From positions 28,364-92,363 of the forward strand of contig DATDVE010000013.1 of NCBI GenBank assembly GCA_036517655.1: DNA of 64,000 nt, written 5' to 3'. The DNA comes from Minisyncoccota bacterium (GTDB taxonomy: Bacteria; Patescibacteriota; Minisyncoccia; Phycocordibacterales; DATDSR01). The notes below the pieces were generated by a model. That model saw only the letters and a program-made list of their open reading frames with translations. It was not told the origin of the DNA and did not search any database. Positions 4,286-60,316 of this stretch are shown piece after piece (the stretch's first letter is position 1; every line of letters begins with the position of its first letter). The translations under genes and the position numbers were made by a program.

Positions 4286-4341
4286 CTCACCCTACCCTCT
4301 CTTATAGATAAGAGAGGGCGAGACAGAGTCCGGGTGAGTTA
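4283..4341. mobile_element. MITE-like palindromic element copy 1
   Basis: TIR TAACTCACCC (4283-4292) / GGGTGAGTTA (4332-4341). Internal 24-bp palindrome CCCTCTCTTATAGATAAGAGAGGG. Its first TAA is the ddl stop codon. Confidence 0.8.
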
Positions 4342-5343: not shown

Positions 5344-5360
5344 TTATCCACTTTGTAGAT

Positions 5361-5400
5361 CAAGTAAAATTAGTGAGCGATCGCTCACTAATTTTACTTG
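5361..5400. terminator. Perfect 40-bp palindrome (20+20) between convergent genes; bidirectional terminator or operator
   Basis: CAAGTAAAATTAGTGAGCGA|TCGCTCACTAATTTTACTTG centred on GCGATCGC. Confidence 0.5.
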
Positions 5401-5407
5401 ATTTATT

Positions 5408-6000: not shown

Positions 6001-6312
6001 TTGTATGGTAAAATTAGTATGCTATCGCTCTCTAATTTTACCATTGGCACTCTTAATTATCCAGATAGTATGGCGGAGGAGGTTCGGATAATGGATAACT
6101 TCGTGCAGCACCCAGACAATGAAGTGCAGCAGGCGATCACGAGACTCGCAGACGCACTCTGTTCGTGGGAGAGGAGTACAGGACTACAATCGGTGTTAAT
6201 TATCCGAGAACAAGGTGATCCAGGGTTCGTTTTTCGAGCAATGTCGGGCAAGCCAGGGATTCCCGATGACATAACGGATCAGCAGATGGTGGATACGATA
6301 CGCCGGGGATAG
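6001..6312 (+). CDS. Hypothetical small protein
   Basis: ORF only. Followed by hairpin GTACCCGGG...CCCGGGTAC (6328-6359). Confidence 0.3.
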   Translation: MYGKISMLSLSNFTIGTLNYPDSMAEEVRIMDNFVQHPDNEVQQAITRLADALCSWERSTGLQSVLIIREQGDPGFVFRAMSGKPGIPDDITDQQMVDTIRRG

Positions 6313-13026: not shown

Positions 13027-13857
13027 ATGAAACTTGTCGCCTATATTCCTGTCTTGCACAAAGGCTATCTTGATCTATTCTCCCGGCACAAAGATTGCCG
13101 CGAACTTGCCATAATCGGCGAAGAAATTTTAGCCGACTTTGATCACGTAATTCGCAAAGACATCCGTCGCATTCCATCTGAACAAATGAAGCAAGCAATT
13201 GAAGCACTAGAACTATTTGATAAAGTAGAAATTCTCGACAAAAAGTTTGCAACTTCACTTGGCGCCCAGGGCGCCAAGTTAGTGATGTCAGATGATGAGA
13301 TTACTCGCACGCTTGCCAGTAGTGAGCTTAAGAAATGCGAGATAGAGTGGGACAAGGCATTCTTGCGTTGGCATCGCGACAACACGCTCGAAGAGCAAGC
13401 TACTGATCCAGACGAAACTGTCTCTCTCAAAGAAGTAGATCGGGAGCTTATGGGTAAAGCGAGAGAGAAGGGAAGTGAGAGTCTCGATTGGTATCGGCAG
13501 GTGGGGGCTTTGCTTGTGCGTGATGGGGAAATTCTGCTTAGTGCCGTAAACACTCATATGCCAAGTCCCACACAGGCTTATCAAGTCGGTGATCCAAGGA
13601 GTGTGTATAAGCGCAATTTGAATATAGAAATTTCGAGCGCTATGCACTCGGAGGCGGCAATAATTTCTGAAGCAGCCAGGCGGGGGATCAAAACAGAAGG
13701 CTGCTCTGTCTACGTCACAGATTTCCCCTGCCCGCCATGTGCCAAAGTATTATCGCACTCCGGTATAAAAAAATTATACTACGCCGGAGGCTACGCGGTC
13801 TTAGATGGGGGAATAGTCTTGAAAGATGCGGGGATCAAACTAATCAGAGTTAAATAG
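13027..13857 (+). CDS. dCMP/cytidine deaminase with ~145-aa N-terminal extension (degenerate nucleotidyltransferase-like)
   Basis: C-terminal HSEAAIISEAARRG...PCPPCAKVL zinc-binding deaminase motif. N-terminus AYIPVLHKGYLDLF resembles an HxGH motif. Confidence 0.75.
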   Translation: MKLVAYIPVLHKGYLDLFSRHKDCRELAIIGEEILADFDHVIRKDIRRIPSEQMKQAIEALELFDKVEILDKKFATSLGAQGAKLVMSDDEITRTLASSELKKCEIEWDKAFLRWHRDNTLEEQATDPDETVSLKEVDRELMGKAREKGSESLDWYRQVGALLVRDGEILLSAVNTHMPSPTQAYQVGDPRSVYKRNLNIEISSAMHSEAAIISEAARRGIKTEGCSVYVTDFPCPPCAKVLSHSGIKKLYYAGGYAVLDGGIVLKDAGIKLIRVK

Positions 13858-22122: not shown

Positions 22123-25100
22123 ATGACTGGCCCCACACCGGCTAATTTGCCAGAGAAGTCTGACGCTGCCAAGAGAGAAGAAGAAACTCTCAAGTTTTGG
22201 CAGGAAAACAAAATCTTCGAGAAGTCCCTCAAGTTAAGAGAGGGCAAAGAAGAGTTTGTCTTTTATGATGGCCCACCGTTTGCTACCGGCTTGCCCCACC
22301 ATGGCACATTACTTTCCTCTGTGGCTAAAGATGTTATTCCGCGATACAAAACAATGCGCGGGTTTTATGTACGCAGGCGCTGGGGCTGGGATACTCACGG
22401 TTTACCTATAGAGAATATGATCGAGAAGGATTTGGGGCTAAAGTCAAAAAAAGATATTTTGGCATTGGGGATTGAGCAGTTTAACGAAGCTTGCCGGGCT
22501 AAAGTTATGCAATACGCGCATGATTGGCAGAAATACGTTGATCGAGTTGGGCGCTGGGTTGAGTTTGAGAGCGCATACAAGACAATGGACGCAACGTACA
22601 CAGAGAGCGTGTGGTGGGCGCTCAAACAAATGCACGAGAAAGGCTTGCTATATGAGGGCAGGAAAGTGCTCATGTACTGTCCACATTGCGAGACGCCCCT
22701 GGCCAAAGCCGAGATTGCCATGGATAACTCATATAAAGATGTTACAGAAGAAGCCGTCACAGTGAAGTTTAGGTTGAAAATTGAAAATTGGAAATTGAAA
22801 ATTGCAGATACGCCCACGTATCTGCTGGCCTGGACTACCACGCCATGGACACTCCCTGCCAATGTGGCACTAGCTGTTGGGCCGGAGATCGAGTACTCGT
22901 TAGTAACTCACCCGGACTCCGTCTCGCCCTCTCTTATTAATAAGAGAGGGGTAGGGGTGAGTTATATTGTGGCTTCCGCATTAGTTGAGAAGCATTTTGG
23001 CAAAGATGCAAAAGTTGAGAAAACTTTTTTTGGCAAAGATTTAGAGGGGATAGAGTACGAGCCGCTCTTCCAGATTCCAGCTGTCCAGCAATCTGGTAAG
23101 CCAGCGTACTATGTTGCTCTGGCAGACTTTGTGAGTACAGAAGAAGGCACAGGCATTGTGCACACGGCTGTGATATATGGCGAGGACGACTACCAGCTAG
23201 GACTGAAAAATGATTTGCCCATGGTTCCCATATTAAATTCAAATGGCACTTACAATGATTTAGTGCCGGAGTTTTTGCAGGGGCAATACATCAAGAAAGC
23301 AGATAAGTTAGTGATAGAGGATCTCGAGAAGAGGGGTTTACTTTTCTCCAAAGCGCCAAACACGCATAGTTATCCGCATTGTTATCGTTGTGGCACGGCG
23401 CTCATATATAACGCGCTCTCCAGTTGGTTTGTCAACATTCAGAAGATCAAAGCGCGCATGATTGAGCTCAATGAGAAGATAAACTGGGTGCCAGAGCACC
23501 TGAAGCACGGCAGATTCTTGAACATTGTCGAGAACGCCCCCGATTGGACAATCTCGCGTAACAGATTCTGGGCAAGTCCATTGCCGATCTGGAAATGTAG
23601 TGAATGCGATTTAGTTAAAGTTGTGGGATCCCTCTCGGATTTGGAAGATAACCGCTCCACCAAACCGAATAAGTACATTTTGGTTCGTCATGGTCAGAGC
23701 GAAAAGAATAGTGGCAACGGAGAGCAGGGGGTCATCGCCACTACTCGCGAGGGTGATAGGTACCACTTAACAGAAGAAGGTCGAGAGCAGAGCAGGAAAA
23801 TTGCCTCTGAACTCAAATCACAAAACATTGACCTAATTGTGACCTCGCCTTATCTGCGCACTAAGGAGACGGCAGAGGCAATAGGAAGCCTTCTGGGCGT
23901 GAAGGTAGAAGAGGACGAAAGATTGAAGGAACTCCAGCTGGGTCAGACGCTCGAGGGCAAGACATGGGATGCTTTCAGAGAATTCGAGGGGAAGCGCGGT
24001 TTCGATGATCACTTAGGAGAGGGAGAGAGTTGTCGCGAGATGTTGGAACGTATGAGAGCCGTTGTTGTTGACCTAGATAAGAAGTACCAAGGGAAAAGCA
24101 TTGTTCTTGTGAGCCATGGTGATCCACTTTGGCTTCTGCGTTCTTATCTTATGAATCTCTCTCCTCAAGAAACACTCAAGCAGCATGATTCTCTGTATCC
24201 TAAGCGGGGGGAATTTTATGTTTTATCTCACAGCAATTACCCAAGGAACAAAAACATGGAGCTTGATTTTCACCGGCCCTACATTGATGCGATTAAGCTT
24301 GCTTGTTCATGTGGGGGCGAAATGGTGCGCATACCGGAGGTGGTTGATTGCTGGGTGGAATCTGGCTCGATGCCCTTCGCCGAGTATCATTACCCCACAG
24401 AAAACAAAAAAGAATTTGAAGGCCGATTTCCGGGAGACTACATAGCCGAGTACATTTCCCAGACCAGGACTTGGTTCTATTACATGCTCGCTGTTTCGAC
24501 AGCACTCTTTGATCGCGAGCCATTCAAGAATGTTGTAACAACTGGCAACTTACTTGCAGCGGATGGAGCCAAGATAAGTAAGTCTAAAGGCAACTATACG
24601 GACCCGCTTCTTCTGATTGATAAATATGGAGCAGATGCATATCGCTACTACGAAATGGTATCTGTTGTTATGCAGGGGGAAGATGCGCTCTTCAAAGACG
24701 ACGAGGTGAAAGAAGTGTATCAGCGCATGATAAACATTCTCTGGAATGTTGTTCAATTTTATACGACGTATAAAATTGAAGGGCAAAGTGCAAAGGTCAA
24801 AAATCAAAATTACACTTCAAAATTTGAAAATGTGCTGGATCGGTGGATACTCGCAAGATTGGCAGAACTCAATCGTGATGTGACAGAGAATCTAGATAAA
24901 TTTGATACAGTCAAAGCCGGTCGGCCAATCAGGGACTTTGTCACGGATCTATCAACCTGGTATATTCGCCGGTCGCGCGATCGCTTTAAATCAGATAATG
25001 CGCAAGATAGAGACAGTGCTATTGGGACGACTAGATTTGTGCTGCTGGAGCTCTCTAAACTAATAGCGCCGTTTATGCCATTCCTTGCCGAACAAGTATA

Positions 25101-25605
25101 CAAAGCCGTAGGTGGTGAACTCGAGTCAGTCCATCTGGAGAACTGGACTGAAATAAAGTCCGAGCCAGAGCATTCTGATGTTCTTGAGAACACCAGAATA
25201 ACGCGCGACATAGTGTCGCTAGCGCTCGAGGCACGCCAGAAGGAGGGGATCAAAGTGCGCCAGCCGCTTGCAAGTTTACAAACTAGCGCAAAGCTTGCTC
25301 CAGAATATCTGGAGTTGATAAAAGACGAGGTGAATGTCAAAGAAGTAAAGTTTGGCCCAGAGCTCCTTCTCGACACAAACATAACGCCTGAACTCGAACT
25401 CGAAGGCAAGATGCGCGATCTAGTAAGATCTGTGCAAGAGAAGCGCAAGGACTTGGGTCTCCAGCCCACTGATCAGGTCAATCTCACTCTCCCAACTTCA
25501 CTTGGGGATCTGATCCCTAAGTTTGAAAGCGAAATCAAAAAATCTGTGCATGCACAAAATGTGTCATTAGCAGACACACAAGAAATAAAGATAGAAAAAG
25601 TATGA
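22123..25605 (+). CDS. ileS: Isoleucine--tRNA ligase with in-frame MITE insertion and inserted histidine-phosphatase domain
   Basis: PFATGLPHHGT (HIGH), WTTTPWTLPAN, KISKSKGN (KMSKS). 1160 aa. MITE at 22904-22964. PGAM-like domain (LVRHGQSEKN, TSPYLRTKETAEAI, LVSHGDP) at about 23632-24255, between the CxxC and CxC zinc-finger halves. Confidence 0.9.
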   Translation: MTGPTPANLPEKSDAAKREEETLKFWQENKIFEKSLKLREGKEEFVFYDGPPFATGLPHHGTLLSSVAKDVIPRYKTMRGFYVRRRWGWDTHGLPIENMIEKDLGLKSKKDILALGIEQFNEACRAKVMQYAHDWQKYVDRVGRWVEFESAYKTMDATYTESVWWALKQMHEKGLLYEGRKVLMYCPHCETPLAKAEIAMDNSYKDVTEEAVTVKFRLKIENWKLKIADTPTYLLAWTTTPWTLPANVALAVGPEIEYSLVTHPDSVSPSLINKRGVGVSYIVASALVEKHFGKDAKVEKTFFGKDLEGIEYEPLFQIPAVQQSGKPAYYVALADFVSTEEGTGIVHTAVIYGEDDYQLGLKNDLPMVPILNSNGTYNDLVPEFLQGQYIKKADKLVIEDLEKRGLLFSKAPNTHSYPHCYRCGTALIYNALSSWFVNIQKIKARMIELNEKINWVPEHLKHGRFLNIVENAPDWTISRNRFWASPLPIWKCSECDLVKVVGSLSDLEDNRSTKPNKYILVRHGQSEKNSGNGEQGVIATTREGDRYHLTEEGREQSRKIASELKSQNIDLIVTSPYLRTKETAEAIGSLLGVKVEEDERLKELQLGQTLEGKTWDAFREFEGKRGFDDHLGEGESCREMLERMRAVVVDLDKKYQGKSIVLVSHGDPLWLLRSYLMNLSPQETLKQHDSLYPKRGEFYVLSHSNYPRNKNMELDFHRPYIDAIKLACSCGGEMVRIPEVVDCWVESGSMPFAEYHYPTENKKEFEGRFPGDYIAEYISQTRTWFYYMLAVSTALFDREPFKNVVTTGNLLAADGAKISKSKGNYTDPLLLIDKYGADAYRYYEMVSVVMQGEDALFKDDEVKEVYQRMINILWNVVQFYTTYKIEGQSAKVKNQNYTSKFENVLDRWILARLAELNRDVTENLDKFDTVKAGRPIRDFVTDLSTWYIRRSRDRFKSDNAQDRDSAIGTTRFVLLELSKLIAPFMPFLAEQVYKAVGGELESVHLENWTEIKSEPEHSDVLENTRITRDIVSLALEARQKEGIKVRQPLASLQTSAKLAPEYLELIKDEVNVKEVKFGPELLLDTNITPELELEGKMRDLVRSVQEKRKDLGLQPTDQVNLTLPTSLGDLIPKFESEIKKSVHAQNVSLADTQEIKIEKV
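22904..22964. mobile_element. MITE-like palindromic element copy 2, in frame within ileS
   Basis: TAACTCACCC...GGGGTGAGTTA with internal CCCTCTCTTATTAATAAGAGAGGG. Translated as VTHPDSVSPSLINKRGVGVSY inside IleRS. Confidence 0.8.
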
Positions 25606-29790: not shown

Positions 29791-30848
29791 ACGAACCACA
29801 GAGAATAATAGTTACCCCCAGTCTTTCCGGCATCATCAAAGTGGCGGTTGTCGCTCTTTGTATTGTGGCTCTCTTTCTCGTCCGCAACGTAATTCTTATC
29901 ATGCTTACTTCTCTTGTCATAGCTTCTGCCATCGAGCCCGGGGTTAAGGGACTTACCAAGAAGGGGTTGCCCCGTGTGGTATCAGTCCTACTCATATATC
30001 TGCTCTTTGCCCTTATCTTCTTCATCTTCACACTCATCTTCATCCCACCGATGCTGTCGGAAGTTTCTAATCTTTCTGTTGTCTTGCCGGGGTATCTTGA
30101 GAGTGTGAATGTTTCCGATGTTATCCCGGACATTATCCCCGGAGGGGACTTAGTCGGCGGTGAGTTGGTAGATACTTTCTCGATCAGATCCGGTATCGAG
30201 CAGTTGCAGAGTGCTCTTGCTGGGTTGTCCAAAGGATTTCTCCACACAGCTTCGACTATCTTCGGTGGTGCGCTCTCGGCCATGCTTGTATTGGTGATCT
30301 CATTTTATCTTGCTGTGGAAGAACGGGGGATAGAGACATTCTTGCGCGTAGTTACTCCAATACAGAAAGAGAATTATGCCATCAATCTCTGGAAGCGGAC
30401 ACAGGAGAAAATTGGTCTCTGGCTCCAGGGGCAGCTCTTGCTCGCTGTCATTGTGGGCGTGCTTGTCTACTTGGGCCTCTTCATATTGCAAGTGCCGTAC
30501 GCTACTTCGCTTGCAGCTCTTGCCGCTCTGCTCGAGATTATTCCGATTTTTGGCCCGATCATAGCGGCCATACCGGCTATCATAATCGCTTTCTCGATTA
30601 GCCCCACTCTTGGTCTAATGGTCGTGGGCCTCTATGTCATAATCCAGCAATTCGAGAATCACCTTATCTATCCCTTAGTTGTGACCAAGATCGTAGGTAT
30701 ACCACCTATCATCGTAATTGTGGCTCTGCTTGCTGGCGGTCAGCTTGCCGGGATATTGGGCTTCTTGCTTGCTATCCCGCTTACAACCGTCTTGGTCGAA
30801 CTTTTCAACGATCTAGAGAAGCACAAGTTGGCTGCACAAAAGACTTAA
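29787..30848 (+). CDS. AI-2E family transporter (PerM/UPF0118)
   Basis: Eight predicted TM helices. LLEIIPIFGPIIAAIPAII signature. Confidence 0.75.
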   Translation: MNEPQRIIVTPSLSGIIKVAVVALCIVALFLVRNVILIMLTSLVIASAIEPGVKGLTKKGLPRVVSVLLIYLLFALIFFIFTLIFIPPMLSEVSNLSVVLPGYLESVNVSDVIPDIIPGGDLVGGELVDTFSIRSGIEQLQSALAGLSKGFLHTASTIFGGALSAMLVLVISFYLAVEERGIETFLRVVTPIQKENYAINLWKRTQEKIGLWLQGQLLLAVIVGVLVYLGLFILQVPYATSLAALAALLEIIPIFGPIIAAIPAIIIAFSISPTLGLMVVGLYVIIQQFENHLIYPLVVTKIVGIPPIIVIVALLAGGQLAGILGFLLAIPLTTVLVELFNDLEKHKLAAQKT

Positions 30849-32269
30849 TGTCCGATAAGTTCTACATCACAACTACTACGCCATATGTAAACGGCGACCC
30901 GCATATTGGGTTCGCGCGTGAGATTGTTGTAGCAGACGCTATCGCTCGCTTCAGGAAAATTATGGGCGACGAAGTGCGCTTCAACACTGGCACTGACGAG
31001 CACGGACAGAAAATATTTGAGAAGGCTCGAGAAGAAGGTCTAGAGCCCAGAGATTATGTAGATAAACTTGCGCCCAGATTCGCGGCGCTCAAGAGTCCGC
31101 TTGATCTCTCGTTTACTGATTTCTCGCGCACATCAAGTGAGCAACACAAGGTGGCTGCACAGGAGATGTGGAAGCGGTGCAATAAGAACGGTTATATCTA
31201 TAAAGGCAAGCACAAAATTAAATATTGCATAGGCTGTGAGCTAGAGAAGACAGATTCAGAACTTGACAGTGACAAGTGCCCAATTCATCCCAATCGCGAA
31301 TTAGAAAAAAGAGAAGAAGAAAACTACTTTTTCAAGTTTTCTAAACTTGCTCCCAAATTGCTTGAGCTGTACAAAGATAATCCAGAATTTGTGAGGCCAG
31401 ATTTCAGGATGACAGAGATCAGAACTTTCGTAGAGCGAGGCTTGCAAGATTTCTCTATCTCGCGACTTAAGTCAAAAATGAGTTGGGGAGTGCCAGTGCC
31501 CGACGATCCAGAACATGTTATGTACGTATGGTTCGACGCCCTCGTAATATATATTTCTCCCTTGGGTTGGCCAGAAGATGAGAATATGGGTGGCTGGTGG
31601 CCCGGCATGCAAGTCTGTGGCAAGGACAATCTTCGCCAGCAGACGGCCATGTGGCAAGCTATGCTCATAGCAGCCGGACTACCTGCTTCAACCCAGGTGC
31701 TTGTTTTTGGTTTTATAACTGGCGATGGGGGTATCAAAATGAGTAAGAGCTTGGGTAATGTTGTTGATCCCGTGGCTTTGGTAAATGATTGGGGGACAGA
31801 TGCTGTTCGCTATTTCCTGTTGCGCGAGCTTAGTTTGTGGGAAGATAGCCCGTTTACGCCCGAGCGCTTCAAAGAAGCATATAACGCTAACCTGGCAAAC
31901 GGCCTGGGGAATCTTGCGTCGAGAATTATGAAAATGGCGGAGGTAAATCTAGATACGCCGGTTAAAATTCCCGATAACTCTCTACCAGACGATTATAAAA
32001 AGTTAATGGACGAGTTTGGATTGCAGAAGGCAGCTGATTATATCTGGACTGAAATTGGCAGACTAGACACTCTCATCCAATCAAGTGAGCCATTCAAGTT
32101 AGTTAAGAGCGACCCAGAGAAGGGAAAAGAATTAATTCAAGAGTTGGTGGTGGACCTCTATACAATTGCCAGCATGTTAAACCCGTTCATACCAGAAACA
32201 GCGCAAGCGATCAAAGACGCAGTGAAGGGAAACAAGAGTTTTACTAAGCCACTTTTCCCTCGTAAATAA
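30848..32269 (+). CDS. metG: Methionine--tRNA ligase (short form)
   Basis: PYVNGDPHIGFA (HIGH region) and KMSKSLGN. The stop TAA is the first 3 nt of the composite element. Confidence 0.9.
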   Translation: MSDKFYITTTTPYVNGDPHIGFAREIVVADAIARFRKIMGDEVRFNTGTDEHGQKIFEKAREEGLEPRDYVDKLAPRFAALKSPLDLSFTDFSRTSSEQHKVAAQEMWKRCNKNGYIYKGKHKIKYCIGCELEKTDSELDSDKCPIHPNRELEKREEENYFFKFSKLAPKLLELYKDNPEFVRPDFRMTEIRTFVERGLQDFSISRLKSKMSWGVPVPDDPEHVMYVWFDALVIYISPLGWPEDENMGGWWPGMQVCGKDNLRQQTAMWQAMLIAAGLPASTQVLVFGFITGDGGIKMSKSLGNVVDPVALVNDWGTDAVRYFLLRELSLWEDSPFTPERFKEAYNANLANGLGNLASRIMKMAEVNLDTPVKIPDNSLPDDYKKLMDEFGLQKAADYIWTEIGRLDTLIQSSEPFKLVKSDPEKGKELIQELVVDLYTIASMLNPFIPETAQAIKDAVKGNKSFTKPLFPRK

Positions 32270-32716
32270 CTCACCCGGACTAAAGTCTCGACCTCTCTTA
32301 TAAACAAGAGAGGTAAAAAACAGAATCGTGAACAAATTTTTGGCGAACAATAAAATTCTGAAGAACCGCAGAAGGGAATTGCGCAGGAATCAGACTGAGG
32401 CCGAAAAGATTATGTGGGCATACCTTAGGGGTAAACAAATTGGGGTCCGTTTCTTGCGTCAATACAGTCTGGGTCCTTACATTATTGACTTCTATTGTCC
32501 TAGGATCAAACTTGCTGTAGAGTTAGATGGTCCCGTCCACGATTTACCAGTAAGTCAGGAGTATGATAGAGAAAGAGGATTATATTTAGGTAGTCTAGGG
32601 GTGAGGACAGTTAGGTTTAAGAATGCCACAGTAATGAATAATCCAACTAAAATTACAAATAAACTTAAACCTCTCTTATCTATAAGAGAGGTCGAGGCTT
32701 AGGCCCGGGTGAGTTA
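32267..32716. mobile_element. Composite TA-flanked element carrying a DUF559 endonuclease gene (probable full-length relative of the MITEs)
   Basis: Left end: TAACTCACCC+GGACTAAAGTCTCG+hairpin ACCTCTCTTATAAACAAGAGAGGT. Right end: hairpin ACCTCTCTTATCTATAAGAGAGGT+CGAGGCTTAGGCC+CGGGTGAGTTA. Ends are about 85% identical to the MITE ends. Confidence 0.75.
32328..32702 (+). CDS. DUF559 (Vsr-like PD-(D/E)xK) endonuclease-domain protein
   Basis: RRELRRNQTEAEKIMWAYLR...FLRQYSLGPYIIDFYCP..LAVELDG.VH...D.R...L...G..RF matches the DUF559 consensus. The C-terminal 10 aa are encoded by the right-end hairpin. Confidence 0.75.
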   Translation: MNKFLANNKILKNRRRELRRNQTEAEKIMWAYLRGKQIGVRFLRQYSLGPYIIDFYCPRIKLAVELDGPVHDLPVSQEYDRERGLYLGSLGVRTVRFKNATVMNNPTKITNKLKPLLSIREVEA

Positions 32717-33477
32717 TGATCATCGACGTACATAGTCACTTAAACGACGAGCAGTTTGAGTCTGATCTGCCCGAAACTGTGGCCCGCATGAAGGGGGCGG
32801 GGGTGTCTACTATTGTGGTAGGCACTGATCTTGCCACCTCACGCAGAGCCCTCGATGTGGCTAAGATGTACGGCCTATGGGCGACTATCGGCCAGCATCC
32901 AACGGATAACGTGGAAGAGAACTTCGACGAGGCGGCTTATGCTGAACTTGCTAAAAATAAGGAAGTGGTTGCCATCGGTGAGTGTGGACTCGACTTTTTC
33001 CTAGACAAGAGTGATGAGGGGCATGCAAGACAAGAGAAACTTTTTCATCTTCATCTTGAACTTTCTGCCAAAACAGGTAAGCCCTTAATGATTCACTCAC
33101 GAGGCGCGTACGAAAAAATATCCGTTAATCTGGCCACCAACATTCGCTTGCTCCCGTCCACCCCCGGCAATGTGCACTTTTTCACCGGTTCGTGGGTAGA
33201 TGCAAAAAGATTACTGGACCTTGGATTCACAATTTCATTCCCTGGAGTTATTACTTTTACCAGTGATTATGACGAAGTCATAAAGAATGTGCCTAAGGAT
33301 ATGTTCATGGTTGAGACAGATTCTCCCTTTGCTGCTCCGGTGCCCTATAGAGGTAAGCGCAACGAACCGGCCTATGTGGTGGAAATTGTTAAAAAGATCG
33401 CCGAATTGCGTGGCATGAGCCCAGAGAAAGTAGCCGAGCTAAGTTTGGCTACTGCCAAACGCGTATTTGCCTTGTAG
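32716..33477 (+). CDS. tatD: TatD-family metal-dependent DNase/hydrolase
   Basis: MIIDVHSHLN start, GECGLD motif. 253 aa. Confidence 0.85.
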   Translation: MIIDVHSHLNDEQFESDLPETVARMKGAGVSTIVVGTDLATSRRALDVAKMYGLWATIGQHPTDNVEENFDEAAYAELAKNKEVVAIGECGLDFFLDKSDEGHARQEKLFHLHLELSAKTGKPLMIHSRGAYEKISVNLATNIRLLPSTPGNVHFFTGSWVDAKRLLDLGFTISFPGVITFTSDYDEVIKNVPKDMFMVETDSPFAAPVPYRGKRNEPAYVVEIVKKIAELRGMSPEKVAELSLATAKRVFAL

Positions 33478-33505: not shown

Positions 33506-33976
33506 ATGGATGATAAGGATTTGGATAACGAAAGGGAGAAGAGCTTGTACGAACTTGCCTATATTCTCGAGCCAGAATTGGACGAGCAGGCTTCCCAACA
33601 GGAACTAGCCAGGATTAGCTCGGTCATCGAGAAGCACGGTGGCGCGACTGTGCTATCAGAAAGTCCTAAGCTACGAGGGCTAGCCTACACCATAGAGCGA
33701 TCGGGGGGCGACAAGAAAAGGAAGTTTAATCAGGGTTATTTCGGTTGGATGAAGTTTAATATCGTAGGTTCTATCCTGCCGGAATTGGAGAAGGATCTTG
33801 CGCATGATTCGCATATAATTCGGCATCTAGTAATGCACGCCACTCTGGCTTCTGCTTCTCCCATCCGCAGGGTTCCTCGCAAAATTACACCTGACGTGCC
33901 AGTTGAAAAAGCGAGTGAGGCTGAAATAGATAAGGAAGTAGAGAAACTAATCGAGAGTACAACTGTGGCCATATAA
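33506..33976 (+). CDS. rpsF: 30S ribosomal protein S6 with C-terminal extension
   Basis: YELAYILEPEL...LRGLAYTI...GYFGWMKF S6 core. In an operon with ssb and rpsR. Confidence 0.75.
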   Translation: MDDKDLDNEREKSLYELAYILEPELDEQASQQELARISSVIEKHGGATVLSESPKLRGLAYTIERSGGDKKRKFNQGYFGWMKFNIVGSILPELEKDLAHDSHIIRHLVMHATLASASPIRRVPRKITPDVPVEKASEAEIDKEVEKLIESTTVAI

Positions 33977-34062
33977 TTATGTATCCCATTAGAAGTCTAT
34001 CTAAATAATGTCACTTAACATGTCGAACCCATTTGCTATAATCGTAAGTAACTTCTAACGGG

Positions 34063-34527: not shown

Positions 34528-34725
34528 ATGCAATGCTATTTCTGTACAAATAACGCTACCCACATAGATTACAAGGACCTGGAGACTCTCAAGAAGTTTC
34601 TAGATCAATACGCGCGAATCTCTCGCAAGCGCACAACCGGAGTCTGTTCCCTCCACCAGAGGAAACTAGCCCGAGCAATCAAACACGCCCGCTTCATGGC
34701 ACTCCTACCATTTGTGGCATCATAA
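34528..34725 (+). CDS. rpsR: 30S ribosomal protein S18
   Basis: CYFCTNN...IDYKD...ISRKRTTGV...QRKLARAIKHARFMALLPF. Confidence 0.88.
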   Translation: MQCYFCTNNATHIDYKDLETLKKFLDQYARISRKRTTGVCSLHQRKLARAIKHARFMALLPFVAS

Positions 34726-34781
34726 CTCACCCAACCCTCTCTCATAGATAAGAGAGGGCGAGACGGAGTCCGGGTGAGTTA
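34723..34781. mobile_element. MITE-like palindromic element copy 4 between convergent rpsR and efp
   Basis: TAACTCACCC (34723-34732), CCCTCTCTCATAGATAAGAGAGGG, GGGTGAGTTA (34772-34781). Its TAA is the rpsR stop and its TTA is the efp stop on the minus strand. Confidence 0.8.
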
Positions 34782-38924: not shown

Positions 38925-39003
38925 CCCGTTAGAAGTTACTTCGTTTAATATTGCAAGTCATAATAATTTGTGTGACATTATTTTGTTAAACTTCTAATGG
39001 GAC

Positions 39004-41298
39004 TCATAATTGTGTGTCTGACTGCTTATCGAACTCTTCAGCGTATTCATCAGTTGCCGTGGTGCTTGATCCGAACACTTCACGAGGCTTAGCCCCCGAT
39101 CCCGGACCAACTACGCCTCGTTCTTCGAGCATATCCAGCAGTCTTGCCCCGCGAGCATAGCCAACTTTGAGCTTGCGCTGGAGAAGAGAAGAGGAAGCCC
39201 TACCGGATTTCTGCACAGTTTCCCTTGCCTGTTCGTATAAGTCATCGTCATCTCCAGAGGCTTCGTCAGAAAAGTTGCCATCACTTGCCCCTTCTCCCTG
39301 GTTTGGTCCGGTGATCTCCACAATCGGAGCCTCCACTTCGTTGTTGCCATTGATGAAGCTCACCACTTTCTTCACCTCAGTTTCAGAAACGTAAGCTGAC
39401 TGGAGACGTGTAGGTTTAGAAGTTTCGCCAGACAGATACAACATGTCGCCGGCACCCAAGAGTTTCTCTGCGCCGGGCATATCGATGATTGTACGCGAAT
39501 CAATCTGGGAGGGTACCTGGAGAGCGACACGCGAAGGCACGTTTGCTTTGATCAATCCCGTAATCACTTCCGTAGATGGCCTCTGCGTTGAGAGCACTAA
39601 GTGGATGCCAACGGCCCGTGACATTTGGGCCAGACGCACTATTGCCGCCTCGAGTTCTCTGGGGTAGCTCGACATAATGTCGGCCAGTTCATCAATGACT
39701 ATTAATATGTACGGCATTGGTTCAGGCAGTTCGGCCTGCAGCCTGGCCTTCTCCTCCTCATCAATTCCGTCACCCAATTTCTTGTTGTAGACTTCAAGTG
39801 CCGGTCGGTAGACGTTGTCGTGGTAACTCTTGATGTCCCGGGCCTGCTCGGCTTCGAGAATATCGTAGCGCCTGTCCATCTCTTTGGCTGCCCACTTAAG
39901 TGCCAGGATTGCCTTCTTGGGATTGGTTATAACCGGCGTGAGCAGATGTGGGATATTGTTGTATAGCGTGAGTTCTACTCGCTTGGGGTCAATCATGATG
40001 AAGCGCATGCTCTCTGGGCCGTTCCTGTACAGGAGTGCCAGGATGAGGGCGTGAATGGTGACAGATTTGCCCGAACCGGTCGTACCAGCTATGAGCAGGT
40101 GGGGCATCTTGGCAAGGTCAGCAAATTGCACAGTTCCGGCGATATTCTTGCCGAGGGCAACGAGCAGTGACTTATCAGAAGTTTTGAAATCGTCTTCAGC
40201 CAAAATAGTTCCCAATCTAACCGTTGTCTTCACGCTGTTGGGCACCTCGATCCCTACGAGTGATTTACCCGGGATGGGCGCTTCTACGCGCAGAGGGTGT
40301 GCGGCCAGGGCAAGAGAAAGATCATTTTGCAGTGCTACTATCTTCGATAGCTTGACTCCCTCTGCGGGCTTGAGTGCGTAACGGGTTATGGACGGACCGA
40401 TAGATATTTCGTCCATCTCTACTTCTATACCGAAGTTTGCAAGTGTACGTTTAATAATGTTTGAGTTCGCCTTGATGTCGCCAGCAGCTGGTTTGCCGCT
40501 ATCTTTGCCGAGTAGTTCTAGTGGCGGAGGGACATAGGGCGCCGCGTCGGCTCTCGATGAGGGTGTGAATTCTTCGGCAATCTGACTACTTGCCCCAGAG
40601 TTTCTGGCAAAAATTTTCTCTACTATATTTTGCTTGCGCGGTTCATTCTGATTGGCGCCTGCCTCTGCCTCTTCCTGCTCTTCAGTTCCTTGGTCGTCCA
40701 GAAGTCCCTGTGTTTGCTCCAGATCTTCTTCGTCTGTTGTCTGCTCACGTTTCCTCCGAATGCGTGCCCAGAGATTTGGCAAAGAGAATGAAGTCTCGAA
40801 GAACAGCACAAGAGAAATGATCAACATAACGACAAAGATAAGCCAGCTTGCCACGCCGAAGAGGCGAGTAGCTGTGCCTGACACAGCCCACCCGATAATT
40901 CCTGCTGTCTTGTCGTGGAAACCAAGCTCAATGAGCCCCAGTCCAGATACTACAAAGAGCAAAACTCCCAGAAGTCGAGTACTAACTATGCGTGGTCGCG
41001 AGAATTTGAAAAATGATATAGACAGAAGTAGTGATACGAGGGGCACAAGATAATAGCCTGACCCCAAGAGATAGTGGAGTGACCTATAGATGTAATCTCC
41101 CACTGGACCGGCGTACTTAAGGCCGGCAAGACAGAGGAATACTGCAAGGGCCAGGAGGATGATCCCTATGATAGTGTGCTTGGCCTCGTCCTTTAAACCC
41201 CTCCTCTCTGACAGCGAAGATTCTTCAAGGGCTCCCTTTTTGTCCTTAGACTTATTTCGTCCCATATACAGTCTTATTGTAGCAGAGAAAGCAAGCAT
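39004..41298 (-). CDS. ftsK: DNA translocase FtsK/SpoIIIE
   Basis: Four or five N-terminal TM helices. Walker A GTTGSGKSV. C-terminal gamma wHTH (LYEQARETV...SSLLQRKLKVGYARGARLLDMLEE). Confidence 0.9.
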   Translation of the reverse strand: MLAFSATIRLYMGRNKSKDKKGALEESSLSERRGLKDEAKHTIIGIILLALAVFLCLAGLKYAGPVGDYIYRSLHYLLGSGYYLVPLVSLLLSISFFKFSRPRIVSTRLLGVLLFVVSGLGLIELGFHDKTAGIIGWAVSGTATRLFGVASWLIFVVMLIISLVLFFETSFSLPNLWARIRRKREQTTDEEDLEQTQGLLDDQGTEEQEEAEAGANQNEPRKQNIVEKIFARNSGASSQIAEEFTPSSRADAAPYVPPPLELLGKDSGKPAAGDIKANSNIIKRTLANFGIEVEMDEISIGPSITRYALKPAEGVKLSKIVALQNDLSLALAAHPLRVEAPIPGKSLVGIEVPNSVKTTVRLGTILAEDDFKTSDKSLLVALGKNIAGTVQFADLAKMPHLLIAGTTGSGKSVTIHALILALLYRNGPESMRFIMIDPKRVELTLYNNIPHLLTPVITNPKKAILALKWAAKEMDRRYDILEAEQARDIKSYHDNVYRPALEVYNKKLGDGIDEEEKARLQAELPEPMPYILIVIDELADIMSSYPRELEAAIVRLAQMSRAVGIHLVLSTQRPSTEVITGLIKANVPSRVALQVPSQIDSRTIIDMPGAEKLLGAGDMLYLSGETSKPTRLQSAYVSETEVKKVVSFINGNNEVEAPIVEITGPNQGEGASDGNFSDEASGDDDDLYEQARETVQKSGRASSSLLQRKLKVGYARGARLLDMLEERGVVGPGSGAKPREVFGSSTTATDEYAEEFDKQSDTQL

Positions 41299-46443: not shown

Positions 46444-47688
46444 ATGATTTACAAGAAACGCATTCTAGTACTCGGTGGCGGTTATGGCGGCACTTACACC
46501 TTCAAACATCTCCACAAAAGTTTTAAGAATAATTCAGGTGTTGAGCTACGTTTAATTAGCAAGACTAATTATTTTGTCTCCACGCCCTTCTTGCACGAAG
46601 TGGCCACGGGCAACATTGACCCCGAGCATGTGGCCGAACCTCTGCGCAAGATTTTCCCCGGACCGGAAGAATTCCAGCTTGCCGATGTTAAAGCTATTTC
46701 GTTAAAAGATAAAAAAGTAGAAACAAATGAAGGAGTAATAGCTTACGATTATCTTATTATGGCTTTGGGCGCTGAGACTAATTATAGGAACACGCCAGGT
46801 GCGCGCGAACACACGCTTGCCCTCAAAACACTCGAAGATGCTATCAAACTCAAGAACCATTTTATCTCAACGTTTGATCAAGCTGCTAATCTGCATAACG
46901 AGGAAGAAATAAGAAAGAAATTGCGTTTTGTAGTGATTGGGGGCGGGGCAACGGGAGTAGAACTTGTTTCCGAAATGTCTGATTTCCTATACTCTTCGCT
47001 GGGGACGTATTACACCAAAAATTTCATAGCACATATTTCTATTATTTTAGTGCATGCAGGGGACGACCTACTTCCCAACTTTAGCCACAATATCAGGCTT
47101 GCCAGCAAAAAAGTATTGCGCAAAAAGAAAATAGAAATCAAATTCGGTCTGCAAGTGATCGAAGTGCGCCCCGGAGCTTTGGTGTTAAATAACGGCGAAG
47201 TGATAGAATCAGACACAATTATTTGGGCCGCTGGCGTAAGTCCCTCCAGTGTGTCAGTTACCCCGAGCGTAGAAAGAGAGAGGGGCAGAATAATTGTGAA
47301 TCAATTTTTCCAGATCCCATCTTATCCAGAGGTGTTTGTGCTCGGCGACCAGGCGGCTTTTAGGAATGTTGGTGATAGCGCGGCTCTACCCATGCTCGCT
47401 CAAGTGGCACACAAACAAGCTGACGCAGTGGCTCGCAATGTAGCGAGAATAGTAGAAGGCAAATTACCCATGCCATATACCTACAAGCACTTGGGCGACT
47501 TAGTAAGCTTGGGTGAGTGGGTGGCGGCGGGCGAACTATTTGGCATCAAGATATTTGGCCACGTGGCTTGGTTCTTCTGGCGCGGAGTCTACCTCTCTAA
47601 ACTCCTGTCTCCCACAAAAAAAGTGAAGGTTCTCCTAGATTGGCTCCTAAATCTTTTCGCCCCTCGCGACATCTCCGCCATCAACTAA
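46444..47688 (+). CDS. ndh: Type II NADH dehydrogenase (NDH-2)/FAD-dependent pyridine nucleotide-disulfide oxidoreductase
   Basis: Two Rossmann GxGxxG motifs (ILVLGGGYGG; VVIGGGATGVE). 414 aa. Confidence 0.75.
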   Translation: MIYKKRILVLGGGYGGTYTFKHLHKSFKNNSGVELRLISKTNYFVSTPFLHEVATGNIDPEHVAEPLRKIFPGPEEFQLADVKAISLKDKKVETNEGVIAYDYLIMALGAETNYRNTPGAREHTLALKTLEDAIKLKNHFISTFDQAANLHNEEEIRKKLRFVVIGGGATGVELVSEMSDFLYSSLGTYYTKNFIAHISIILVHAGDDLLPNFSHNIRLASKKVLRKKKIEIKFGLQVIEVRPGALVLNNGEVIESDTIIWAAGVSPSSVSVTPSVERERGRIIVNQFFQIPSYPEVFVLGDQAAFRNVGDSAALPMLAQVAHKQADAVARNVARIVEGKLPMPYTYKHLGDLVSLGEWVAAGELFGIKIFGHVAWFFWRGVYLSKLLSPTKKVKVLLDWLLNLFAPRDISAIN

Positions 47689-48417
47689 CTTGGAGGCCTT
47701 GCCTCCAAGTTATAAGGGTGATGATTAGATGTCTCCAATAGCAAAACTATCTAATTTTTTTGATTTTTTTACTTCTAACATGAGTTGCAAAGAATCTAAA
47801 GCAAATTTCCTGTAGTCATTCGTGTTCTTAAACTGGTCAAGTATGATTTTTTTCTCACAAATAGACAAGGTACTTTCTTTCATATATTCGTCCCAACTAC
47901 TTCGCACCAACTTAGAGGCCTTGCCTCCAAGTTGGTGAACTTCTGGGTTCAGGTTCACATAAGCACTACAGTGCAGCAGGTCGTCATTGCTGAGTATTCG
48001 TCTTGCTTTAAATTTTCCTTGGTACAAAGACCCAGATCGTTTATATCTATTATTTATGTAATAGGCAAAACCTCCAGATAGTCTTCCAAGGAACATACTG
48101 ATACCGTTTTCCACTAGTTGTTTCAATATCAGATGGAAATGATTCGGATTTAAGCAATACGCGACTATTTCCACGAGTTTTTTCTTGGGTCGTTTTTTAT
48201 CAGGTTTAGCAAAAGACTGTTCATAAATGCTACCTATTGGCTCAACAACGTTAAAAAGTATTAGGCTTTCCACAAACCGATTTGAATCTAAAGGATCTCG
48301 AGTGATATCGCACCCTTCAGCCCCGCGATTACAAATGTGGTAGTACTCATCGTGAGCGAAGGGCTCCTTTCGTGATGACATTGGTTTAATCTAACACTTG
48401 GAGGCAAGGCCTCCAAG
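47689..48417. mobile_element. IS200/IS605-like or REPtron-like element: Y1 (HUH) transposase flanked by inverted REP hairpins
   Basis: Hairpins CTTGGAGGC-CTT-GCCTCCAAG (47689-47709) and CTTGGAGGC-AAG-GCCTCCAAG (48397-48417) in opposite orientation. A third copy (47911-47931) lies inside the transposase ORF. Confidence 0.65.
47725..48381 (-). CDS. Y1 HUH transposase (IS200/IS605 TnpA or RAYT)
   Basis: YYHICNRG (~YHV.NRG), NPNHFHLIL (HUH motif), SLYQGKF (catalytic Tyr region). Confidence 0.7.
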   Translation of the reverse strand: MSSRKEPFAHDEYYHICNRGAEGCDITRDPLDSNRFVESLILFNVVEPIGSIYEQSFAKPDKKRPKKKLVEIVAYCLNPNHFHLILKQLVENGISMFLGRLSGGFAYYINNRYKRSGSLYQGKFKARRILSNDDLLHCSAYVNLNPEVHQLGGKASKLVRSSWDEYMKESTLSICEKKIILDQFKNTNDYRKFALDSLQLMLEVKKSKKLDSFAIGDI

Positions 48418-48476
48418 TGAGCTATGCACATGTTGTCCACAGCAACTTGCATGTCGCTAGATGATAAACTAACTGT

Positions 48477-56333: not shown

Positions 56334-56720
56334 GCGGAGAAGAAAAGATATATACAGCTAAAAGATCTAGAGGTTTATAAACACGCAAGAGAGCTCTCGA
56401 GACTTGGTTGGGAGATGTATAAATCCTTCGACTGGCAGACAAAGAAGGTGATCGGAGATCAATTTATCACAGCAACTGATTCTGTGGGAGCTAATATTGC
56501 AGAAGGCTACAGCCGTTACCATTATCTAGACAGAATAAAGTTTTTCTACAATTCCCGAGGCTCGCTTGCCGAGGCGGCTGACCACTGGTTGGCCATTCTC
56601 CATGAACGAGGTAAAATAGATGATAAGCAACACGAAGCATTTGCTTTGATTGCCAGCAGGGTGTCGTTAAAACTCCAGAACTTCATCAATGCAATATATA
56701 AAACCAAAAACAGCGAGTAA
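56331..56720 (+). CDS. Four-helix-bundle protein (family usually found in 23S rRNA intervening sequences)
   Basis: EVYKHARELSRLGWEMYKSF...IGDQFITATDSVGANIAEGYSRYHY...YNSRGSLAEAADHWLAILHERG matches the TIGR02436-type four-helix-bundle family. Confidence 0.75.
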   Translation: MAEKKRYIQLKDLEVYKHARELSRLGWEMYKSFDWQTKKVIGDQFITATDSVGANIAEGYSRYHYLDRIKFFYNSRGSLAEAADHWLAILHERGKIDDKQHEAFALIASRVSLKLQNFINAIYKTKNSE

Positions 56721-58929
56721 AGTATCTAAGTATCGTAGTATCCCAGTATCTATTAGTATCGGTTTTATTTTCCTAGTATCTATAAGTATCTTGATATCAA
56801 CTAATATCGCCTCCATCGTCTCCGCTTTCACTATTCAAAAGACCCTGCCCACTCAACCCGACCTGCAAAACGGCCTAGTGGGCCACTGGACATTTGATGG
56901 CAAGGATATTTCCGGTACCAGCGCCACAGACCGAAGCGGCAACAACAACACCGGCACCCTCACCAACGGCCCACTTGCCACTGTCGGCAAAATCGGCCAG
57001 GCCCTGAACTTTGATGGGAGTGATGATTATGTAAGTATTGCGGACAATAATTCTCTTGACCTTACATCTGCGGTCACTATTAGCTTATGGTTTAAAGCTG
57101 ATGGGTGGACTGCCGCATACCAAGGGCTCGTTGCGAAAAGAATTGGCAATTCGTCCAATTACGGTTTGAATGTAAGTAGCACAGGAAGTGCATTTCAGTG
57201 GTTCTTCCATGACGGGGATTATCAGATAGTTGATATAAATGCAAGTACCGTTTCTACAGGCCAGTGGCATCATTTTGTGGGGACTTTTAGTGATACTGGC
57301 GATGTAGTGGGGTCTATCTATATTGATGGAACTTTGAAAAAGACAGAAACATTTACGGCTAGAAATCTTGTCGCAAATACCAATACTCTTCGTATCGGTG
57401 AGAGTAATAATCCGGCAAGTGGCCCCGAACATTTCAATGGCTCCGTCGACGACGTGCGCGTGTACAGCCGGGCGCTTAGTGCGGCCGAGATTACTAAACT
57501 GTACAAACTCGGGGCCACCAGTCACGTCAATGTCACCCTCCCCACCCAACCCGACCTGCAATCTGGTCTGGTCGGCCACTGGACGTTTGACGGCAAAGAT
57601 ATGGGCCCGAATGTACTTGATAAATCAGGCAACGCAAACCACGGCAATGCTGTTTACGGCACCACTGGCAATACGAGCACGACTACAGTCGCGGGCCGGA
57701 TCGGCCAGGCACTTGTCTTTGATGGATTTCCTGTGCTCAATGGATTAGCTGACAGCGTTCTTCTCCCTGGTGTTTCAGTGACGGGGACCAGCCATAGCGT
57801 TTCCATGTGGCTCAATGTTACCGGGCTTCCAGCCGACACATACGGTACCCTTTTCAGTGATGCGTTTGGGAACACTGGACTTTATTATTATAACGATGGG
57901 GCGACAGAAAAGATTACTTATTTCTATAGTCTTGCCGATAATTTCGCCTCAACTACAATAAAAGTTGATAACAAGTGGCACCATTTTGCAGCTGTTTCCG
58001 GTACTGGCGGAGTTACTTTCTATGTCGACGGAGTTAGAAGTGGCGCAGTGTTTGGTCAAGTCCCGGATTATTCGGCAACAAGAATCGGAGGTGACATTTT
58101 TAACGATGAGTTTAAGGGTGCCCTCGACGACATCCGTCTCTACAATCGTCCACTTAGCGCGGCAGAAGTAACTAAACTATACAAACTCGGGGCCACCAGC
58201 CACGTCAACACAACCCTCCGCACCCAACCCGATCTGCAAAATGGCCTAGTGGGCCACTGGACATTCGACGGAAAGGACGTGGGGCCGAATGTACTTGATA
58301 AATCAGGCAACGCAAACCACGGCAATGCTGTTTACGGCACCACTGGCAATACGAGCACGACTACTGTGCCAGGCCGCATCGGCCAAGCTTTGAGCTTTGA
58401 TGGCGTGAACGACTATGTTCTGGTAAATAATAGTGCAAGTCTCACTATGACCACTGGTGATATAAGTATGGGAGGGTGGTTATATCGAAATGCGTCATTC
58501 TCGGTCAATCCCAATATCTTCCACAAAAAGAGTGGTACAAATGATATTAATAGTGGATACGCTATGGGAGTATTAAGAAGCACCCATTCATTGGGTGGCC
58601 ACAAGCCAGCTTTCAGTTTCGCCGATGGTACAAATGCCGCTTATTTCTACCCCACATCAATAACATACGCAACACCTTTCAGAAAGTGGGTCCATGCTTT
58701 CGTAGTTTTCAATTCTACTACCGATACGGCGCAAATATATATCAACGGACAACCAGTCGATACAACTAACGTTTATGCCAGCGCGATTGGTTCAGTAACT
58801 AACACCACAGCGCCAAATATAGGCAGGATATCCACATCCTACTTTGGTGGAAATATTGATGATTATCGCGTCTACAGCCGGGCGCTTAGCGCGGGGGAGG
58901 TGAGGAAATTGTATGAGATGGGAAGATAG
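56689..58929 (+). CDS. Secreted protein with three tandem LamG/concanavalin-A-like lectin domains
   Basis: Each about 228-aa repeat begins TQPDLQ.GLVGHWTFDGKD and ends DD.R.Y.RALSA.E..KLY.LG. Start uncertain: the N-terminal hydrophobic segment is encoded by the right inverted repeat and overlaps the four-helix-bundle gene. Confidence 0.65.
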   Translation: MQYIKPKTASKVSKYRSIPVSISIGFIFLVSISILISTNIASIVSAFTIQKTLPTQPDLQNGLVGHWTFDGKDISGTSATDRSGNNNTGTLTNGPLATVGKIGQALNFDGSDDYVSIADNNSLDLTSAVTISLWFKADGWTAAYQGLVAKRIGNSSNYGLNVSSTGSAFQWFFHDGDYQIVDINASTVSTGQWHHFVGTFSDTGDVVGSIYIDGTLKKTETFTARNLVANTNTLRIGESNNPASGPEHFNGSVDDVRVYSRALSAAEITKLYKLGATSHVNVTLPTQPDLQSGLVGHWTFDGKDMGPNVLDKSGNANHGNAVYGTTGNTSTTTVAGRIGQALVFDGFPVLNGLADSVLLPGVSVTGTSHSVSMWLNVTGLPADTYGTLFSDAFGNTGLYYYNDGATEKITYFYSLADNFASTTIKVDNKWHHFAAVSGTGGVTFYVDGVRSGAVFGQVPDYSATRIGGDIFNDEFKGALDDIRLYNRPLSAAEVTKLYKLGATSHVNTTLRTQPDLQNGLVGHWTFDGKDVGPNVLDKSGNANHGNAVYGTTGNTSTTTVPGRIGQALSFDGVNDYVLVNNSASLTMTTGDISMGGWLYRNASFSVNPNIFHKKSGTNDINSGYAMGVLRSTHSLGGHKPAFSFADGTNAAYFYPTSITYATPFRKWVHAFVVFNSTTDTAQIYINGQPVDTTNVYASAIGSVTNTTAPNIGRISTSYFGGNIDDYRVYSRALSAGEVRKLYEMGR
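56721..56815. repeat. Right arm of GATACT-rich inverted repeat
   Basis: AGTATCTAAGTATCGTAGTATCCCAGTATCTATTAGTATCGG...CTAGTATCTATAAGTATCTTGATATC. Confidence 0.6.
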
Positions 58930-59019
58930 GGCGAAATTGGCCATGCTTTTTCATCAAGCCCTGCATAGGTTTATCACATGTCTTGACTAGTTTAAAGTTG
59001 TAGCTTAAACTGGCCATAT

Positions 59020-60246: not shown

Positions 60247-60316
60247 CGACGTGCGCATCTACAACCGGGCGTTGAGTGCGGGGGAGGTATTAAAATTGTA
60301 CGAGATGGGGAGGTAA
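60244..60316 (+). pseudogene. Orphan duplicate of the LamG-protein 3' end (encodes DDVRIYNRALSAGEVLKLYEMGR*)
   Basis: About 78% nt identity to 58853-58929. Begins exactly at the ATPase stop codon. Confidence 0.6.

Follow-up and report, generated by a model that had tools for sequence, protein, structure and literature searches.

The 64,000-nucleotide window, by which we mean the whole stretch of DNA analysed here, raises the question of how one short palindrome can end two convergent genes at once. The unit between rpsR and efp reads TAACTCACCC AA CCCTCTCTCATAGATAAGAGAGGG CGA GACGGAGTC C GGGTGAGTTA, the plus-strand order being terminus, big hairpin, small hairpin and terminus (Table 1). The first-pass annotation had assigned its first three bases to the rpsR stop codon and its terminal TTA, in reverse complement, to that of efp, and both assignments proved correct. 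The window comes from a groundwater member of Candidatus Paceibacterota (Patescibacteria/CPR), and its EF-P is 100% identical to one Candidatus Paceibacterota EF-P. At the level of structure, the unit folds with −27.9 kcal/mol (z = −5.2 against shuffles), the folds of the element are stabler than those of shuffled sequence on both strands (z about −5 to −6), and the full element pattern is expected 0.00 times in shuffles. The building block of the family is a 48-nt arm consisting of the terminus TAACTCACCC, a 3-bp small hairpin and a 10–11-bp big hairpin, and the 59–61-nt form is a single arm plus the opposite 10-nt terminus. The small hairpin has the consensus GAC-nnn-GTC, with a compensatory change to GGC..GCC in the right arm of the composite unit described below.

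Table 1. Coordinates in the window of the palindromic element, its parts and the adjoining genes
Feature	Coordinates	Strand	Remarks
Second 59-nt copy, 95% identical	4283–4341	+	its TAA is the stop of ddl (3287–4285)
61-nt copy, opposite orientation	22904–22964	-	inside ileS (22123–25605)
metG	30848–32269		ends at TAACTCACCC at 32267
Composite unit, 450 bp	32267–32716	+	two inverted arms around DUF559 gene, between metG and tatD
Left arm: terminus, small hairpin, big hairpin	32267–32314	+	TAA 32267–32269 is the metG stop
DUF559/Vsr-like PD-(D/E)xK endonuclease gene (predicted), 124 aa	32328–32702	+	Pfam PF04480, E = 3e-28
Right arm	32669–32716	+	last base A (32716) is the A of the tatD ATG
tatD	32716–33477		A of start codon is the final base of the composite
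rpsR, ribosomal protein S18, 65 aa	34528–34725	+	Pfam PF01084 Ribosomal_S18, E = 9e-21
Palindromic element, 59 nt	34723–34781	+	between convergent rpsR and efp
Left terminal inverted repeat, 10 nt, TAACTCACCC	34723–34732	+	TAA 34723–34725 is the rpsR stop
Big hairpin CCCTCTCTCATAGATAAGAGAGGG	34735–34758	+	
Small hairpin GACGGAGTC	34762–34770	+	GAC-GGA-GTC
Right terminal inverted repeat GGGTGAGTTA	34772–34781	+	TTA 34779–34781 is the efp stop, minus strand
efp, elongation factor P, 186 aa	34779–35339	-	Pfam PF08207/PF01132/PF09285 (EFP_N/EFP/Elong-fact-P_C)

The assignment of the ddl stop to a further copy was likewise upheld, the TAA at 4283 being the terminus of a 95%-identical unit, and pfkB starts 15 nt past the end of this copy. 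Pfam profiles run to the C-termini of the window genes that end on the element. A fourth window copy, which the first-pass annotation had missed, lies within ileS and is translated in frame as VTHPDSVSPSLINKRGVGVSY (21 aa). IleS has a further feature: its residues 519–684 form a His_Phos_1 histidine phosphatase domain (E = 2e-33) inserted within the synthetase, an insertion common to many Paceibacterota IleS database homologs, of which many are annotated as partial or split.

At metG, the earlier description stood in part. The stop codon does lie on an element terminus, but the supposed copy at 32267 is really the left arm of the DUF559 composite, whose arms form an inverted pair of 48–49 nt with 88% complementarity. 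The enclosed protein scores 98.4 bits against PF04480 (curated cutoff 20.6), has further matches to PDB 3HRL (E = 6e-14) and NCBIfam PRK09767 and shares the stretch IDFYCP..AVELDG..H with the homologs compared, and is a predicted endonuclease; the final codons and the stop of its gene lie inside the right arm. A filing as a defence system was dropped, as PADLOC gave marginal matches only. In the ortholog L130, which is distant (67% MetG identity), the metG–tatD junction is empty and holds a 12-nt spacer. DUF559 genes sit between inverted arms in three further contexts: L149, between a 515-aa ORF and yidC; L161, where arms of 46 nt are 98% complementary; and L141, where the unit follows a gspE-like gene, has a broken methyltransferase as additional cargo and shows compensatory changes in its left hairpin. 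Because the gene is found between arms in four different contexts and the L130 junction is empty, we conclude that arms and nuclease gene travel together. The DUF559 proteins of the composites are 47–62% identical, as against about 90% for the arms, and about 35 of 40 arm loci have no DUF559 gene nearby.

Outside the window, an arm-pattern scan of metagenomes returned 27 groundwater loci. Of the 118 loci matched by the 15-mer AGKCCGGGTGAGTTA in genome contigs, nearly all were chance hits, and L021, L048 and L118 were the real ones; neither the viral contig scan for the element nor the Rfam search of the window at gathering threshold returned a match. The family occurs in four forms, namely solo arms, 59–61-nt units, a 97-nt two-hairpin unit (L118) and DUF559 composites. 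With four window sites and arms in the 27 metagenome and 3 genome loci, the element is a short non-coding unit with terminal inverted repeats and multiple dispersed copies, as expected of a MITE. The MITE label of the first-pass annotation is nevertheless incomplete, since the gene linked to the element encodes a DUF559 endonuclease and the supposed copy at metG is an arm of that gene-bearing unit. No relative with a DDE transposase was found: between arms, the search for an autonomous relative met only DUF559 and, once, the broken methyltransferase. The same 15-mer scan also yielded a look-alike in Mucilaginibacter (L067, L084, L106), in which a hairpin CCCTCTTT..AAGAGAGGG is followed by a spacer and then GGCCGGGTGAGTTA, with no DUF559 gene nearby. 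Short-read assemblies break at the repeat: the contigs L120, L122, L123 and L132 stop within the element, just past efp.

That the TAA/TTA termini sit on stop codons was the central claim of the first-pass annotation. For each unique outer terminus, we measured the length of the open frame closed by its TAA. As background, an open frame of 60 codons or more precedes 6.2% of all TAA triplets in the same DNA. Of the 8 termini in the window, 4 close real genes (binomial P = 8e-4). Among the 27 metagenome loci, the stop of a Pfam-verified gene coincides with 16 of 37 independent ends (P = 1.7e-10), the other 21 lying away from gene ends, and with orthologous sites collapsed the count is 10 of 30 (P = 8e-6). 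Ten new genes are stopped in this way (PheS, L20, exonuclease III, an NYN protein, FtsW/RodA, L10, L7/L12, YidC, Fmt and TrpS), all of them Pfam-verified to their C-termini, for example PheS FDX-ACB over 94/94 and L12_C over 67/67 positions. The non-random placement holds family-wide. Moreover, a second convergent pair, xth/rplT, receives both stops from the element in three lineages, as does rpsR/efp, and where one xth/rplT terminus has mutated from TAA to TAG the stop is preserved. The comparison of orthologous 3′ ends lacking the element, which the first-pass annotation had proposed, revealed stops that are reused and not displaced, since EF-P and S18 have the same C-terminal lengths in the element-free L127 (..SRI-TAG and ..FVAY-TAA) and Pfam profiles reach the last residue; for MetG, the empty L130 differs by one residue. 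Displaced ancestral stops, which the first-pass annotation had named as a refutation, were not observed.

Comparison of orthologous sites showed that the element can lie in either direction at the same place. At efp/rpsR, L124 (EF-P 80–83% identical) and L130 (76–80%) carry the element with both stops supplied, and its asymmetric interior runs the opposite way from that in the window. Flips between lineages were also observed in ileS (the window versus P0241, P0242, L145 and L138, all in frame) and at xth/rplT (L148 versus L135 and L140), giving three such sites. An apparent truncation of ileS at the element in L145 was traced to a spurious alternative frame, and the true frame reads through. 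After flipping, the element is 90–95% identical between lineages, compared with 70–73% for efp DNA, the third codon positions of which are saturated at about 40%. The spacer variant RGAGTCC is found in the three 59–61-nt copies of the window, whereas GATAGTCC occurs in two of three Hainich H51 contigs, possibly from more than one genome; overall, copies from the same source tend toward one spacer variant. Given this high identity next to saturated third positions and the sharing of spacer variants within sources, the element is no decaying relic, being either strongly constrained or repeatedly homogenised or re-installed. The strong conservation may equally stem from a role that the RNA or DNA hairpins have in the host.

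How copies enter a site can be approached from their junctions, with orthologs serving as empty sites that are 60–80% identical, a distance at which the exact pre-insertion sequence is not recoverable. In-frame copies in tatD add to the one in ileS, with 18 residues encoded in L158 and 32 in L118. The left terminus of the tatD copy coincides in part with a conserved GAT AAY that was already there, and four codons of the native gene are replaced; at the ileS junction, the native GVEY resembles the terminus-encoded GVSY, the empty-site ortholog L167 being too divergent for exact boundaries. A T follows the terminus directly at 29 of 45 ends. In the flanks of 13 full copies, no target-site duplication was found outside the termini, and the sole possible duplication is the TA within the palindromic TAAC/GTTA. 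Models with TA duplication, with no duplication and with a TAA|TTA target all fail to restore both convergent stops or the tatD frame. Strain-level empty sites were sought by exact-protein look-ups of efp and tatD, and all contigs retrieved carry the element or the DUF559 gene. As no simple insertion model regenerates the ancestral state, the junctions may point to a repair-type replacement with microhomology rather than classical cut-and-paste. A preference for TAA, as suggested in the first-pass annotation, or for TA would be compatible with the T after 29 ends and with GAT AAY at tatD, but no simple insertion model gives back both ancestral stops of a convergent pair.

The window contains several other repeats that are distinct from the element. 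A Y1_Tnp/IS200-like protein of 218 aa (PF01797, E = 1.7e-6) is encoded by the ORF 47725–48381 on the minus strand, within a unit at 47684–48421. Its gene is flanked by inverted palindromes ACTTGGAGGCCTTGCCTCCAAGT at 47688–47710 and 48396–48418; a third copy lies in frame inside the Y1 ORF (47910–47932) and a covarying copy at 13257–13279. This unit is REPtron/TIRtron-like, belongs to a different palindrome family and is abutted by the TAA stop of the ORF 46444–47688 (AAC TAA CTTGGAGG). A perfect 25+25-nt palindrome at 5356–5405 and a 34-nt inverted partner at 6008–6041 flank a minus-strand ORF (5408–5986) with a PaaX_M/Cas2-like domain, an arrangement that may be a cassette or an operator pair. 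The two members of a 45-nt inverted pair (33970–34014 and 38972–39016), 84% complementary, are separated by 5 kb: one precedes ssb, and the other covers the 5′ end (start codon plus upstream region) of a 764-aa minus-strand ORF, 39004–41298; the ssb copy is directly upstream of a near-consensus promoter-like site at 34015–34042, and the pair may be a shared regulatory motif. Repeats also occur within genes: a 746-aa protein (56689–58929) with three Laminin_G_3 domains has internal DNA repeats of about 680 nt that are 82–85% identical, and a 62-nt C-terminal motif is found again where neighbouring genes end, at 58867 and 60254 (58867–60315). Related loci add two observations from the ribosomal rplJ/rplL region, where L147 (9235–9320) has a different palindrome, CCTCACCCCCGACCCCTCTCCTTGCGAAGGAGAGGGG, between the two genes, and the rplL stop of L146 reads TAACTCACC, directly followed by a canonical terminator, and looks like a remnant terminus. 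No tRNA genes were found in the 64-kb window (1–64000).

We favour the reading, with a probability of about 55%, that this is a REP/MITE-like palindromic element of Patescibacteria, the gene-bearing form of which encodes a DUF559 endonuclease, and that its termini replace spacers while leaving the proteins unaltered. Both termini read TAA when entered from outside, such that an element abutting the last sense codon terminates the gene with its protein unchanged, and in very compact genomes such placements on stop codons would be the ones to persist. Between convergent genes, the whole spacer becomes element, and both stops are element bases. As to how copies spread, we infer that the DUF559 nuclease breaks DNA at or near element copies and that repair copies in another element, the short palindromic termini (TAAC...GTTA) serving as microhomology. 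A break-repair process of this kind would explain, all together, junctions exactly on TAA/TTA, no clear target duplication, either orientation and homogenisation within a genome. A PD-(D/E)xK nuclease alone is incapable of strand transfer, and mobility would, speculatively, need host repair.

Other explanations have to be weighed against this reading. A chance coincidence with stop codons, or an artefact of ORF calling, might be considered, as TAA occurs often in an AT-leaning genome and some short ORFs are spurious, such as the discounted 72-codon open frame ending at 4341. However, the Pfam domains of all genes involved reach their C-termini, and the enrichment in both window and family, together with two convergent pairs that take both stops from the element in three lineages each, leaves this view effectively refuted, with hardly any probability. 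More substance attaches to the view that the element is kept mainly as a host 3′-end RNA element, with selection setting the exact placement on stop codons, be it as a bidirectional terminator, as an mRNA-stabilising hairpin or as a coupling device based on pairing of the stop codon and CUCACCC with a Shine-Dalgarno-like GGGUGAG just before the downstream AUG. Such a role would fit the stable hairpins on both strands, the conservation far above that of synonymous sites, the terminus GGGTGAGTTATG that supplies the tatD start, termini 4–17 nt upstream of start codons (for example of prfB-like, groES and other genes) and the known capacity of REPs to stabilise mRNA or terminate transcription (PMC3733652). 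Furthermore, at the element-free efp/rpsR junction, L118 carries an A-tract/GC-hairpin/T-tract and L127 a GC hairpin. Because these orthologs have terminator-like hairpins where the window has the element, the latter occupies the place of a terminator, and a function there is possible. The terminator function proposed in the first-pass annotation nevertheless finds no support in the anatomy: the 59-nt copies have a GC hairpin, but neither of their strands shows a T run behind the hairpins, and the consensus terminator scan does not call them, which led us to reject a canonical intrinsic terminator. The copies within ileS and tatD, genes in which a terminator would do harm, argue that termination is no intrinsic property of the element. 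Considering also the 21 ends away from gene ends, and the association with a nuclease gene in four different contexts as an indication of mobility, we regard upkeep mainly by the host as unlikely, although host function and mobility are not mutually exclusive.

Less probable still, in our view, is that these elements are REP-type repeats of the ordinary kind, moved in trans by a Y1 (IS200/RAYT-like) transposase, with DUF559 as a passenger or a trapped solitary Vsr-type repair gene. The window does encode a Y1_Tnp protein flanked by its own inverted palindromes, one of which starts with the same four-base terminus TAAC and directly adjoins the stop codon of the ORF upstream; stop codons from GTAG REP termini are documented (PMC3733652), and the second cargo gene of L141 shows that arms can flank passengers. 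The hairpin flanking the window Y1 gene (ACTTGGAGGCC...) is, however, a different one, and Y1 elements have asymmetric ends instead of inverted arms. Near TAACTCACCC arms, no Y1 gene was found in any of about 45 loci, as opposed to four cases of DUF559 between arms, and we rejected the Y1 transposase as a partner on this absence of linkage. The passenger view is further at odds with the DUF559 stop codon, which is embedded in an arm in distant homologs too. Returning to the DUF559 reading, both the mobilising role of the nuclease and microhomology repair are what we infer from sequence comparison.

The link between DUF559 genes and palindromes extends to the database. The nearest homologs, P0123 and P0124, end in ..PLLFIREVETKSG, which is translated arm, and among the 120 nearest DUF559 homologs, which come mostly from other phyla, a crude regular-expression match counts 75 with hairpin-encoded tails such as TPPxLPFxKGEG. 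Two independent findings fit the link: a screen of inversions between inverted repeats showed "DUF559 domain-containing protein" to be enriched among the genes affected (odds ratio 14; PMC9881135), and a Caulobacter DUF559 protein damages DNA in vivo (PMC12907096). Our literature search retrieved no description linking DUF559 to palindromic repeats or mobile elements, nor of MITEs in Patescibacteria, and the DUF559–palindrome link appears to be undescribed before. A bolder and distinctly tentative proposal is that DUF559 endonucleases are the dedicated nucleases of a widespread, so far unassigned class of palindromic repeats, a second REPtron-like system with a restriction-fold nuclease replacing Y1 and with spread by break repair. 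Its hosts would include Patescibacteria, Desulfobacterota/Geobacter, Nitrospirota and others. If true, such spread would explain the junctions on TAA stops, the in-situ flips, the in-frame genic copies and the concerted evolution. Among individual loci from other phyla, the DUF559 genes of Geotalea uraniireducens (L160; CP000698, 4775609–4778986) and of a deltaproteobacterial locus (L164, 9734–10770) lie among CCTCCCCTTAAnnTAAGGGGAGG hairpins and GGGGGAGTTATG-type motifs, with the DUF559 stop codon in a hairpin loop. These two loci suggest that the DUF559–palindrome partnership may be ancient and widespread, reaching other phyla. The repeats bounding DUF559 in Geotalea are direct and about 105 nt long, and in L164 the hairpin cluster with DUF559 lies between type III mod and res genes.

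For the extremely compact CPR genomes, the element indicates how selfish palindromic repeats may be accommodated by replacing whole intergenic spacers, with the repeats providing stop codons, and in some cases also a start codon or ribosome-binding site, for essential genes such as rpsR, efp, metG, ddl, rplJ/L, pheS and trpS. It also suggests a testable role for DUF559, a very large and uncharacterised endonuclease family whose genes very often end inside a conserved hairpin, and a candidate enzyme type for RAYT-less REP-like families, a question left by the 2013 work on CGTC REPs. One practical consequence is that hairpin-encoded tails get added to predicted DUF559 proteins.

Several known systems share part of this picture. 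Rickettsia palindromic elements (RPE) are, like the present element, tolerated in frame in essential genes (here 21 aa in ileS and 18–32 aa in tatD), whereas most copies described here lie at gene ends; no RPE-like sequence emerged in the searches that were run. Bacterial MITEs, such as Correia of Neisseria, Nezha and QMITE of Coxiella, are likewise small, non-coding and dispersed, have terminal inverted repeats and are transcribed with neighbouring genes. Correia termini are TA-ended, as are those of the present element. Bacterial MITEs can also alter or supply ORF ends (PMC5896051). They differ in that no parent IS with a DDE transposase was found here, that 59 nt is much shorter and that the associated gene is an endonuclease. 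The free-standing or intron-borne Vsr/PD-(D/E)xK homing endonucleases (for example I-Bth0305I, PDB 3R3P) belong to the same nuclease clan, I-Bth0305I being listed together with DUF559 (PMC3424549), and may resemble the composite, a small, selfish-looking gene that would be present or absent between conserved neighbours, to judge from the empty metG–tatD junction of the distant ortholog L130. In contrast to them, the DUF559 gene lies outside any intron or intein and is bounded by palindromic arms that also occur in many gene-free copies.

The closest parallels are found among REP sequences. CGTC-tagged REPs, including Rickettsia RPE-4 and RPE-6, are palindromic, have no known dedicated transposase (PMC3733652) and lie in some cases in frame within genes, and most arms of the present family have CGTC beside the big hairpin (CCGTCTCG-CCCTCTC). 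CGTC families have 8–9-bp stems starting with A-T pairs, 4–5-nt loops and CCA tails, and the five phyla listed for them exclude Patescibacteria (PMC3733652). Membership in CGTC families 1–4 was rejected, as the stems here have 10–11 bp, open with C-G pairs and lack a CCA tail; the present element also has a second hairpin and a 10-nt terminus. REP/REPIN–RAYT systems (REPtrons) share short imperfect palindromes located mostly downstream of genes or between convergent genes, some copies inside genes and an enzyme gene flanked by two inverted repeats. GTAG REP termini often provide the TAG stop of the flanking ORF (Di Nocera et al., 2013, PMC3733652), and stop codons from REP termini are accordingly already known as a phenomenon. 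Here, by contrast, the termini are TAAC/GTTA with no GTAG tag and present TAA on both sides, in the 59-nt form two hairpins lie between terminal inverted repeats of 10 nt, and the flanked gene encodes a predicted PF04480 DUF559 PD-(D/E)xK endonuclease in place of a Y1 HUH transposase.
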